Origin: a virus
Taxonomy: Duplodnaviria; Heunggongvirae; Uroviricota; Caudoviricetes
Virus record (IMG/VR): IMGVR_UViG_2778261352_000001
Span: 1 to 64,000 of that record
Direction: 5' to 3' (one strand)
DNA: 64,000 nt
Shown here: piece by piece, positions 19,072-33,307 of the stretch
Position numbering within the stretch: the stretch's first letter is position 1
Layout: every line of letters starts with the position of its first letter
Notes under the pieces: generated by a model
Databases searched by the model: none
What the model was told of the DNA's origin: nothing
What the model saw: the letters and a program-made list of their open reading frames with translations, nothing else
Translations under genes and position numbers: made by a program

Positions 19072-19098
19072 CCCCGGCAGCCGCCGGGGTTATTTTTG
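19072..19098 (+). terminator. rho-independent terminator
   Basis: CCCCGGC-AGCC-GCCGGGG stem-loop followed by TTATTTTT. Confidence 0.6.
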
Positions 19099-31066: not shown

Positions 31067-31105
31067 TCAGTTGTCAATCATTTATCATTAAAAATAATAT
31101 ATTTA

Positions 31106-31666
31106 TTAGTGCATGATGTTTGCCATCTCATAGGCGTCAGCCAGTAACTCCATCTCTGACTTGTTCAGCAGGGTGAATTCTTTCTTGCCTCCAACCACAC
31201 CATCGGCATGAACAGGGACCAGCCAGGGGTATTTTGCTCTTACTTCAGCCGGTGCTGCATGCTGGTGGTGCCATCTACAAAGTGGCAATTGCTTTTTATG
31301 ACAACCCGGCGCGGTACGACCGGCGATATGGTGCAGAGACACCTCATTAGATATTACTCCATGCATATAGCAGGCAATGCAGGGGAGAGCGCCAAGAGCA
31401 TTGGCGATGCGCCGTTCCTCCGCCGTTGGTGTTCTCCCCTTCAAGCCACGAGATTTTATTTTTACCGCGCTTTTCCGCGTTTTGCTGGCTGGTGGGCGCT
31501 CTTTCTGTTTAGCGATACGGCGGTCGATAGTATCCCGCATTTTCTGATATTGAGATTCTCGCCAGACCGGATCAGCCAACTTTTCCCGTTGCCGAGCGAT
31601 CGCTCGTTCTCTGGCTGCCTTCTGCCACTTGCGGCACTGTTCAATTTTTTGTTCGATTGTTTTCAT
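31106..31666 (-). CDS. ref: recombination enhancement function Ref (HNH endonuclease)
   Basis: 186 aa; HNH-like Cys/His cluster CIACYMHG...HHIAG...CHKKQLPLCRWHHQ; adjacent to cre. Confidence 0.8.
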   Translation of the reverse strand: MKTIEQKIEQCRKWQKAARERAIARQREKLADPVWRESQYQKMRDTIDRRIAKQKERPPASKTRKSAVKIKSRGLKGRTPTAEERRIANALGALPCIACYMHGVISNEVSLHHIAGRTAPGCHKKQLPLCRWHHQHAAPAEVRAKYPWLVPVHADGVVGGKKEFTLLNKSEMELLADAYEMANIMH

Positions 31667-31672
31667 ATGGTC

Positions 31673-31700
31673 AAAAAAAAGGCGGCCTAATGGCCGCCTA
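31673..31700 (-). terminator. intrinsic terminator/attenuator in ref leader
   Basis: minus-strand GGCGGCC-ATTA-GGCCGCC followed by TTTTTTTT, ending 6 nt before ref ATG. Confidence 0.55.
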
Positions 31701-31764
31701 TGATGTCAAGGAGTTAAGTAATGGCACGTCTTCGTAGTTGACAAAAACTGCGGCTCAATTATAG

Positions 31765-31781
31765 CAATAAATTAGAGCAAT
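31765..31781 (-). promoter_or_regulatory. C1 repressor operator (ref)
   Basis: reverse complement ATTGCTCTAATTTATTG. Confidence 0.6.
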
Positions 31782-31913
31782 TGTAGACATTTCATTTATC
31801 GATAATCACATTTTTTCTCTTCAGTGCCTGTGTGCTATACTCCTTCTTGATTGATTGGATGCGGAATACAAACCCGCTCTTTTGTGCAGCCTGGCTCCTT
31901 GCCAGGCTTTTTT

Positions 31914-32225
31914 TTATTTCATCATGGAAGCTGTTAACGCTTTGGACCTTGCTGAACTGATTGAAAGGGCATTGTTTACCTTACCCAGGAGTTCGCCAAA
32001 TTCCCCCATCACTCTAGTAAGCCCGCGCCGCGCTTCCTCCTCCGTTGCATTCATCACAAAATGTTCAGCACTCCGCATGCTTTTAACGGGGAACGCAACA
32101 GATATCGAGTCGATATCAGGCATCCTATCGCTCAACTTTACGGTGACAATGACAGATGGTGACTGAATTTGAGAGCTTACAGACAGCACCACATATTTTC
32201 CGTCTATTTTGAATTCCTTCCGCAT
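31914..32225 (-). CDS. cra: Cra-like protein
   Basis: 103-aa ORF between cre and ref, ATG start; synteny. Confidence 0.4.
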   Translation of the reverse strand: MRKEFKIDGKYVVLSVSSQIQSPSVIVTVKLSDRMPDIDSISVAFPVKSMRSAEHFVMNATEEEARRGLTRVMGEFGELLGKVNNALSISSARSKALTASMMK

Positions 32226-32241
32226 GTGTCACCATAAATAT

Positions 32242-32258
32242 CAAATAATTAGAGCAAT
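32242..32258 (-). promoter_or_regulatory. C1 repressor operator
   Basis: reverse complement ATTGCTCTAATTATTTG, 17 nt upstream of cra start. Confidence 0.55.
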
Positions 32259-32275: not shown

Positions 32276-33307
32276 CTAATCGCCATCTTCCAGCAGGCGC
32301 ACCATTGCCCCCGTTTCACTATCCAGATTACGGATATAGTTCATGACAATATTTACGTTGGTCCAGCCACCAGCTTGCATGATCTCCGGTATTGAAACTC
32401 CGGCGCGGGCCATATCTCGCGCGGCTCCGACACGGGCACTGTGTCCAGACCAAGCCAGGTACCTCTGGCCAGAGTCATCCTTAGCCCCGTAAATCAATCG
32501 GTGAGTTGCTTCAAAAATCCCTTCCAGGGCGCGAGTTGATAGCTGGCTGGTGGATGATGGCGAGGCAACACCATTTTTTCTGACCCGGCAAAACAAGTAG
32601 TTATTCGGATCATCAGCCACACCAGAGACAGAAATCCATCGCTCGACCAGTTTAGTTACCCCCAGGCTAAGCGCCTTCTCTACACCTGCGGTGCTAACCA
32701 GCGTTTTCGTTCTGCCAATATGGATTAACATTCTCCCACCGTCAGTACGTGAGATATCTTTAACCCTGATCCTGGCAATTTCGGCTATACGTAACAGGGT
32801 GTTATAAGCAATCCCCAGAAATGCCAGATTACGTATATCCTGGCAGCGATCGCTATTTTCCATGAGTGAACGAACCTGGTCGAAATCAGTGCGTTCGAAC
32901 GCTAGTGCCTGTTTTGCACGTTCACCGGCATCAACGTTTTCTTTTCGGATCCGCCGCATGACCAGTGAAACAGCATTGCTGTCACTTGGTCGTGGCAGCC
33001 CGGACCGACGATGAAGCATGTTTAGCTGGCCCAAATGTTGCTGGATAGTTTTTACTGCCAGACCGCGCGCCTGAAGATATAGAAGATAATCGCGAACATC
33101 TTCAGGTTCTGCGGGAAACCATTTCCGGTTATTCAACTTGCACCATGCCGCCCATGACCGGCAAACGGACAGAAGCATTTTCCAGGTATGCTCAGAAAAC
33201 GCCTGGCGATCCCTGAACATGTCCATCAGGTTCTTGCGAACCTCATCACTCGTTGCATCGACCGGTAATGCAGGCAAATTTTGGTGTACGGTCAGTAAAT
33301 TGGACAT
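32276..33307 (-). CDS. cre: Cre tyrosine recombinase
   Basis: 343 aa, MSNLLTVHQNLPALPVDATSDEVRKNLMDMFRDRQAFSEHTWKMLLSVCRSWAAWCKLNNRKWFPAEPEDVRDYLLYLQARGLAVKT... matches Cre. Confidence 0.97.
   Translation of the reverse strand: MSNLLTVHQNLPALPVDATSDEVRKNLMDMFRDRQAFSEHTWKMLLSVCRSWAAWCKLNNRKWFPAEPEDVRDYLLYLQARGLAVKTIQQHLGQLNMLHRRSGLPRPSDSNAVSLVMRRIRKENVDAGERAKQALAFERTDFDQVRSLMENSDRCQDIRNLAFLGIAYNTLLRIAEIARIRVKDISRTDGGRMLIHIGRTKTLVSTAGVEKALSLGVTKLVERWISVSGVADDPNNYLFCRVRKNGVASPSSTSQLSTRALEGIFEATHRLIYGAKDDSGQRYLAWSGHSARVGAARDMARAGVSIPEIMQAGGWTNVNIVMNYIRNLDSETGAMVRLLEDGD

Follow-up and report, generated by a model that had tools for sequence, protein, structure and literature searches.

A conserved intrinsic terminator between a C1 operator and the ref gene of a P1-like phage-plasmid, a probable leaky attenuator and insulator

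The rplL-rpoB attenuator of Escherichia coli is a constitutive internal attenuator that sets expression ratios, and the SreA and SreB RNAs of Listeria are riboswitch-derived small RNAs which result from premature termination in 5' leaders. Closest to the locus presented here is the ref gene of phage P1 itself, for which the title of a 1988 paper speaks of "attenuator-antiterminator control" (Windle, Laufer and Hays, J Bacteriol 170:4881; listed in PMC4713147 and PMC10695390). As far as this title goes, the terminator located before P1 ref, which is real and conserved, is already known since 1988 and, because it has been in the literature since that time, our finding adds no new kind of element. 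What is new concerns the compensatory changes that occur in a diverged lineage, the absence of the terminator from the D6-type ref genes and the preservation of the whole unit in plasmids devoid of ref. Both the activity and the mRNA of ref are under the control of C1, and H-NS binds to the motif CGATAAA upstream of the gene (PMC4713147). By rt-qPCR, the RNA of the ref coding region was found to be up 73-fold by 30 min after the inactivation of C1.100, the induction of the ref transcript being lower and later than that of ssb, dmt and kilA (PMC4713147). Ref is harmful to the host, reduces lysogenisation 40-fold and enhances the killing by ciprofloxacin (PMC4713147); because of this harm, the tightness of ref repression matters for the biology of P1 and for phage-antibiotic synergy. 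A map of transcript starts or ends for P1 was not found in the literature searched.

Judged from its sequence, the window, i.e., the whole stretch of 64,000 nucleotides that was analysed, is a P1-like phage-plasmid with cre, c8 and ref on the minus strand (Table 1). Its DNA is 94-96% identical to that of the phages P1, P7, RCS47, JL22 and SJ46, and identities of up to 99.4% are reached with the closest P1-like plasmids of E. coli. The Ref open reading frame matches the Pfam family PF16786 (E = 3e-51) and its product is matched over its full length (residues 1-186) by PDB 3PLW and is 98.9% identical to P1 Ref. Owing to these cre, c8 and Ref genes and to the DNA identity with the P1 types, the region under study corresponds to the ref regulatory region of a P1-type phage-plasmid: a C1 operator overlapping a promoter is located 5' of ref and 3' of cre and c8, and the downstream gene encodes Ref. 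The P1 ref attenuator (M23246, M27041, AF234172) represents the same locus, with an operator, a -10 element and a GGCGGCC-ATTA-GGCCGCC-T8 sequence that are identical or nearly so. Compared to P1, the window exhibits an A for T at 31699, by which the stem gains an A-U closing pair, a spacer to the ATG of 6 nt instead of 5 nt, and a -35 region of the predicted promoter P1ref that is shorter by one T. In the stretches of the P1 (AF234172) and P7 records that were examined, the operator is annotated, as are the P1 promoters, but the terminator is not.

Table 1. Coordinates of the features of the ref locus in the window and of related features in other elements.
Feature	Position	Strand	Basis or remark
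cre	32276-33307	minus	ORF list
c8	31914-32225	minus	103-codon ORF, ORF list
H-NS site CGATAAA	31795..31801	minus	sequence; motif and H-NS binding from PMC4713147
Promoter P2ref	31758..31787	minus	promoter scan, 10/12 + TG; predicted sigma-70 promoter in the P1 record
C1 operator ATTGCTCTAATTTATTG (P1 'Oref', formerly Op2a)	31765..31781	minus	consensus search, 3 mismatches; P1 homology
Leader of ~52 nt, inferred start to hairpin	31700..31751	minus	start from -10 position only
Near-invariant leader core GTCAACTACGAAGAC	31728..31742	minus	pi = 0.010 versus 0.09 and 0.04 in the flanks, among P1-type relatives
Predicted P1ref homologue: GTGCCA (31727..31722), 16 nt, CATCAT (31705..31700)	31700..31727	minus	mapped from AF234172 2017-2022, 2039-2044
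CU-rich anti-Shine-Dalgarno-like motif ACTCCTT	31708..31714	minus	sequence
Terminator hairpin AGGCGGCC-ATTA-GGCCGCCT	31680..31699	minus	8 pairs, 7 G-C, 4-nt loop
Uninterrupted T8 (U8)	31673..31680	minus	first T also closes the stem
Spacer GACCAT, 6 nt, no Shine-Dalgarno	31667..31672	minus	sequence
ref, RecA-dependent HNH nuclease Ref, 186 aa	31106-31666, ATG at 31666	minus	ORF list
CU-rich motif in relatives	JK004 (L210) 1151-1160; Salmonella plasmid (L212) 851-858		
Upstream inverted repeat TGTGTTAGAAAATCAATTTTGAATATCTAACA of D6-type ref	L211 960-1062; also L213, L214		
P1-like plasmids/prophages without ref	L002 1490-1790, L003 1490-1790; L097, L116, L145, L159, L168, L177, L197, L206		

With a tolerance of up to 3 mismatches, the C1 consensus yields 10 sites in the 64-kb window against 0.35 expected, and the operator preceding ref is the homologue of the protein_bind feature 1962-1978 (Oref) annotated in AF234172. 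Its first base is located 82 nt 5' of the hairpin, in agreement with the distance of about 80 bp proposed in the first-pass annotation. The operator overlaps both the spacer and the TG of the promoter P2ref, which is built up from a -35-like hexamer TCTACA (31787..31782), a spacer of 18 nt and an extended -10 element TGcTATAAT (31766..31758), whose hexamer TATAAT (31763..31758) shows no variation at all (pi = 0) among 67 unique relatives. From the position of this -10 element only, we infer that transcripts would start at about 31751/31749. Another operator-like sequence, ATTGCTCTAATTATTTG, was picked up by the C1 consensus search between the cre stop and the c8 ATG (32242-32258, minus strand); P1 possesses at this place ATTGCTATAATTATTTG, which resembles an extended -10 element more than an operator, and an operator is not annotated between cre and c8 in the P1 record.

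Downstream of the promoter, the minus strand successively reads CATCAT, AGGCGGCC, ATTA, GGCCGCCT, TTTTTTT, GACCAT and the ATG of ref. The corresponding RNA, AGGCGGCC-AUUA-GGCCGCCU, forms a perfect stem made of seven G/C pairs and an A-U closing pair, the pairing probabilities of which approach 1.0 upon folding of the leader, and the 29-nt terminator fold displays an energy of -17.1 kcal/mol (z = -4.2). The hairpin GGCGGCC-AUUA-GGCCGCC followed by eight U, as first read from the letters of the sequence, is thus borne out, and the site upstream of ref is also called by the terminator scan. Taking into account its G+C-rich stem, which falls within the usual 5-14 pairs and has a short loop, the U8 tract that directly follows, typical lengths being about 7-9 nt, and the preservation of the structure in evolution (see below), the element has the features of a near-ideal and presumably strong intrinsic terminator. 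When the criteria are a perfect stem with a minimum of 7 pairs, of which 5 or more are G/C, and 7 or more T out of 8, only 3 sites occur in both strands of the 64-kb window (128 kb) and none in 40 first-order Markov simulations. One of the other two sites is located near c8 on the plus strand and is described further on; the remaining one consists of CCCCGGC-AGCC-GCCGGGG followed by TTATTTTT (19072-19089, plus strand). A second copy of the hairpin, as a possible recombination source of the rearrangement seen in the elements without ref, does not exist in the window.

The conservation of the element was analysed in 80 IMG/VR loci and 3 genome loci recruited by Ref similarity, together with annotated records. 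The stem is kept in all of the 82 scorable loci: the 5' arm GGCGGCC is found in 82/82 parsed loci and the 3' arm GGCCGCC in 77/82, the 5 others having C replaced by T at one or two positions, where G-U pairs are retained. The loop occurs under four forms in the 82-locus set and under two more elsewhere, the length of the T-run varies from 6 to 10 nt, and the spacer before ref consists of GCCAT, GACCAT or ACCTT. Calculated from 67 unique ref-anchored sequences, the pi values are low in the 5' arm (0.000), the 3' arm (0.025) and the T-run (0.011), and higher in the loop (0.078), the spacer (0.077), the ref gene (0.045) and c8 (0.098). An invariant stem associated to a variable loop and spacer is the pattern that would be expected of a structure under selection. 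Salmonella phage SJ1 (L005, OQ595196.1) was excluded from the comparisons; cre, c8, a truncated ref, mat and other CDSs follow each other end to end in this record, without intergenic DNA, an arrangement which looks like an assembly or deposition artefact.

A more distant lineage carries the same design. The Ref protein of Cronobacter phage JK004 shares 65% amino acid identity with that of the window, and the Ref protein of a Salmonella Wandsworth plasmid is ~75% identical to JK004 Ref. The genes preceding this region in both elements show no relationship to c8 (E = 12), and the order is ATTGCTCTAATAATTAT, TATAAT, a leader of ~52 nt, GACGGTC-TTCG-GACCGTC, T8 and the ref start codon. Compared to the P1 hairpin, that of the JK004 lineage differs by two compensatory pair changes, from G-C to A-U and from C-G to U-A. 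Among nine distinct hairpin variants with 6 different loops, 63/63 cells are paired, as against 14-71% in slid controls. Outside the hairpin, the P1 and JK004 leaders are barely alignable (36/51 matches versus 31.5 +/- 1.9 in shuffles). The D6-type ref genes (D6 and plasmids of Shigella and E. coli) lack the leader terminator; instead of a C1 operator and a terminator, they possess a long inverted repeat, TGTGTTAGAAAATCAATTTTGAATATCTAACA, which presumably serves another immunity system as its operator, and a normal Shine-Dalgarno sequence with a pairing energy of -3.8 to -5.8 kcal/mol. Because the JK004 lineage shares it and the D6 types do without it, the association of an operator, a terminator and a missing Shine-Dalgarno sequence represents a conserved design of the C1-controlled ref genes, not of ref genes in general. 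These comparisons also bear on the idea that the hairpin is a chance inverted repeat devoid of function. A simple scan of the 2.5-kb neighbourhood would not oppose it, with 4 terminator-like sites versus 2.5 expected, a difference that is not significant, but the rarity of such sites under strict criteria (3 sites in 64 kb versus 0 in 40 simulations), the invariant stem with its varying loop and the compensatory changes of the diverged JK004 lineage leave this idea with a practically negligible probability.

The leader that separates the promoter from the hairpin was searched for the devices usually associated to conditional terminators. No leader open reading frame is conserved among the relatives: the frame GTG...TAG of 9 codons present in the window is not kept, the corresponding P1 stretch continues without a stop into ref but in a different register, and the frame is broken by indels together with a U-run of 6-10 nt, so that a leader peptide was rejected. 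The variation of the U-run between 6 and 10 nt by itself designates the region as non-coding. An alternative antiterminator fold was found neither in constrained folds nor in the RNAalifold alignment fold. When the 3' arm is blocked, the 5' arm forms no more than two weak pairs and is otherwise unpaired, and the RNAalifold structure of the relatives keeps only the terminator and a 3-bp GUC/GAC mini-helix. A 4-bp GCCA/UGGC pairing that can be seen by eye in P1 is broken in the window. The window leader folds into a 5' stem-loop whose pairs, except for the 3-bp GUC/GAC mini-helix, are not kept in register in the other alleles. The near-invariant core GTCAACTACGAAGAC, which forms this GUC/GAC mini-hairpin with a 9-nt loop in the P1 types, does not recur as such in JK004. 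On the opposite strand, the complement of the core contains a TTGACA hexamer (31738-31743); as a promoter it was discarded and probably results from chance, since its spacing to a -10-like hexamer differs between lineages. The Rfam covariance models identified no family in the leader, the sub-threshold small RNA look-alikes arising from the terminator hairpin with 21 bits at best versus a threshold of 50.

A CU-rich motif also occurs a few nt 5' of the hairpin in three lineages, as ACUCCUU in the P1 types, CACCUCCCU in JK004 and UCCUCCCU in the Salmonella plasmid. In read-through transcripts, the ACUCCUU of the window can pair with an invariant AAGGAGU (31846..31840).

Since no alternative fold, no leader peptide and no Rfam family was found, the ref leader is apparently not an RNA switch and, for the lack of a leader peptide, an antiterminator fold and an Rfam family, a constitutive leaky attenuator becomes the likeliest explanation. 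We consider it rather probable that the element is the leader terminator ('attenuator') of ref, which functions as a constitutive damper and insulator with a leaky read-through. In the lysogen, C1 would shut the promoter P2ref while the terminator would stop the transcription reading in from cre and c8 and, by blocking this read-through, would keep the toxic RecA-dependent nuclease off. After the inactivation of C1, most of the P2ref transcripts would end at the U-tract as a ~78-nt RNA, and a minority would read through. That some read-through from a C1-controlled promoter takes place is shown by the 73-fold rise of ref RNA following C1 inactivation (PMC4713147). The resulting ref mRNAs would be poorly translated, because they have no Shine-Dalgarno sequence and contain a stable hairpin ending 14 nt before the ATG. 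The terminator ends 6 nt before the ATG, as originally noticed, and the reported lack of a Shine-Dalgarno sequence in between was verified: the 20 nt located 5' of the ref ATG pair with the 3' end of 16S rRNA at +0.7 kcal/mol, versus a median of -4.5 kcal/mol for the 44 long open reading frames of the window. The U-tract may be the only landing site for the ribosome (S1). In this scheme, the termination efficiency at the ref terminator is a property that we infer from its sequence.

The first-pass annotation also held that transcripts from the operator-linked promoter have to cross the terminator for reaching ref, which the anatomy of the locus supports with the predicted P1ref as a caveat, and it envisaged attenuation, antitermination or a short C1-controlled RNA, which are also the candidate readings here, the first two being the proposal made for P1 in the title of the 1988 paper. 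It did not recognise the feature as a published one. Some observations nevertheless speak against a leaky attenuator. A 73-fold induction is large for a gene located behind a terminator of this strength, the 1988 paper, by its title, argues for an antiterminator and hence for a regulated read-through, the P1-like plasmids without ref keep the whole unit, and the GenBank record of P1 predicts a promoter that bypasses the hairpin.

The first two of these objections belong to the main rival of the leaky attenuator, i.e., a regulated antitermination in which a P1-encoded or P1-induced factor would allow the lytic read-through of a near-complete terminator. Besides the naming of an antiterminator in the title of Windle, Laufer and Hays and a terminator whose strength seems to exceed what a simple leak would allow, the ref mRNA reaches 73-fold although its peak comes after that of the other C1-controlled genes (PMC4713147), and the near-invariant 15-nt core with its small GUC/GAC hairpin could serve as a protein-binding site. 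However, no antiterminator was found described for P1 and none is annotated in the AF234172 stretch examined, no boxA/boxB-like or put-like element was recognised by Rfam in the leader, and the later peak of ref could as well reflect gene dosage resulting from replication. In addition, the P1 and JK004 leaders are barely conserved outside the hairpin, as shown by the 36/51 matches mentioned above, which renders a shared recognition site for antitermination doubtful. Regulated antitermination is thus regarded as an unlikely, though serious, explanation.

Another way around the terminator is offered by P1ref, a promoter annotated as predicted in AF234172. If ref were mainly expressed from P1ref, the hairpin would end only the transcripts coming from cre-c8 and from P2ref; the predicted P1ref start falls within the 5' arm of the hairpin and, for this reason, P1ref transcripts could not form the terminator. 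The statement that C1 occludes 'one of the ref promoters' (PMC4713147), the good conservation of GCCA and of the ATCAT hexamer bases in the P1-type relatives, and the persistence of the terminator with c8 in plasmids deprived of ref are in line with this possibility. On the contrary, the P1ref of the window, with 8/12 consensus matches, is not called by the promoter scan, its -35 hexamer varies among alleles (TTGCCA, GTGCCA, TGGCCA, GAGCCA), and both JK004 and the Salmonella plasmid have no P1ref equivalent in spite of keeping the terminator. An operator located ~60 bp upstream of P1ref would not explain the control of ref by C1 either. A dominant role of this bypass promoter therefore appears improbable, and the leaky attenuator, whose transcripts would start at P2ref, remains the preferred reading.

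Some P1-like elements, for example the plasmid pMTY1886_NA2 (AP026456.1), possess no ref at this place, although everything from c8 through the operator, promoter and leader to the hairpin is still present. They account for 9 of the 53 leader-bearing IMG/VR loci, to which two plasmids must be added, and six or more leader alleles are represented among them. The search of IMG/VR with exact 15-mers, which is biased towards the core and yields many chance matches, was used only for finding these loci and not for the conservation statistics. Their hairpin loop consists of GAAA, GCAA or ATTA and is followed by T6; the homology to P1 ends exactly after this T6, and the T-run is directly adjoined by an icd-like/KilAC antirepressor operon in convergent orientation. 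In some of them the operator is altered (ATTGTTATAATTAATTG) and the -10 element reads CATAAT. The short transcription unit is therefore common to three arrangements, namely c8 + unit + ref, unit + ref, and c8 + unit. Because plasmids without ref keep the entire unit, the operator-leader-terminator association may have a role independent of ref. Their retention of the unit also fits with a module boundary at the terminator, the hairpin being kept as the end of the c8 unit.

These elements speak for a stand-alone small RNA, i.e., a C1-repressed gene for a ~78-nt RNA with its own function in trans, ref being merely located downstream. The unit stays intact without ref in these loci and plasmids, JK004 carries ref and the unit without c8, so that the unit itself represents the constant part, and the transcript would resemble a small RNA by the stem-loop at its 5' end, the unpaired CU-rich motif beside the terminator and the long, unbroken U-tail. 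From the attributes of the trans-acting Hfq-type small RNAs, a promoter of its own and a long-U-tail terminator were recognised, and a seed and identifiable targets were not. No target in the 64-kb window beats the shuffled controls, the best duplex energy of the leader being -27.6 versus shuffled minima of -30.4 +/- 1.9, and neither the invariant core nor the CU-rich motif has an extended complementary stretch in the window. Moreover, the leader is almost unconserved between the P1 and JK004 lineages and belongs to no Rfam family, the hairpin would in any case stay in the elements without ref because it terminates the c8 unit, and their promoter may be a remnant of recent date. A small RNA with a function of its own is accordingly held for very improbable. 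If it were true, the ~78-nt RNA might act via its CU-rich anti-Shine-Dalgarno-like stretch, the retention of the unit in the absence of ref and the JK004 unit without c8 would be explained, and the expression of ref would be a by-product of leakage through the terminator of the RNA gene.

Apart from the ref leader, a few elements were observed on the opposite strand in the vicinity of c8 and ref. Just past the c8 stop, the plus strand contains a very strong intrinsic terminator, AGCCTGGC-TCCTT-GCCAGGCT + T8 (31888-31916), which is one of the only 3 strict terminator sites of the window and is located where no plus strand gene is annotated. The surrounding block 31808-31965 has a pi value of 0.014, versus 0.098 for c8 and 0.045 for ref (67-75 relatives). 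An extended -10 element TGcTATACT (31833-31841, plus strand) would give rise to an RNA of ~68 nt, with a predicted structure in which an unpaired CU-rich 5' end is followed by a small hairpin and then by the terminator (z = -3.1), and sub-threshold look-alikes of Rfam small RNAs were obtained at 31833-31916 on this strand (SorX, E = 0.019). The stretch 31833-31916 (plus strand) is thus a candidate for an unannotated small RNA. Just past the ref stop, a promoter-like sequence TTGTCA-16-AATAAT (10/12, 31071-31098, plus strand), known from its consensus match only, adjoins the Omat operator and overlaps the -35 element of Pmat on the other strand. It is antisense to ref, and a transcript starting there would reach the plus strand terminator at 31888-31916.

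As a leaky attenuator and insulator, the terminator would represent a third layer in the control of ref, after C1/Lxc and H-NS. The comparative data make the choice between a passive leak and a factor-dependent read-through testable, and provide natural variants for this purpose.

Like the leader-peptide attenuators of trp, his and pyrBI, the ref leader contains a terminator shortly before the first structural gene, but it differs from them by the lack of a conserved open reading frame, a frame that differs between alleles and the absence of any antiterminator/anti-antiterminator pairing. Similarly, the N/nut and Q/qut systems of lambda and the put sites of HK022 deal with phage lytic genes located behind terminators, and a mechanism of this type could explain the delayed induction of ref; unlike these systems, no nut- or put-like element was detected by Rfam in the ref leader, and an N- or Q-like protein was not found described for P1. 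The resemblance to SreA and SreB resides in a short terminated RNA with a long U-tail that, as predicted, could act in trans, whereas the ref leader possesses neither a ligand-sensing domain nor a detected target and its RNA is a predicted one. The rplL-rpoB attenuator differs from the ref terminator, which immediately precedes the start codon of a single toxic gene as part of its 5' leader and depends on a repressor-controlled promoter. In both cases, however, an intrinsic terminator without alternative fold is inserted between a promoter and a gene, and a fixed partial read-through would result in a low expression of the distal gene.
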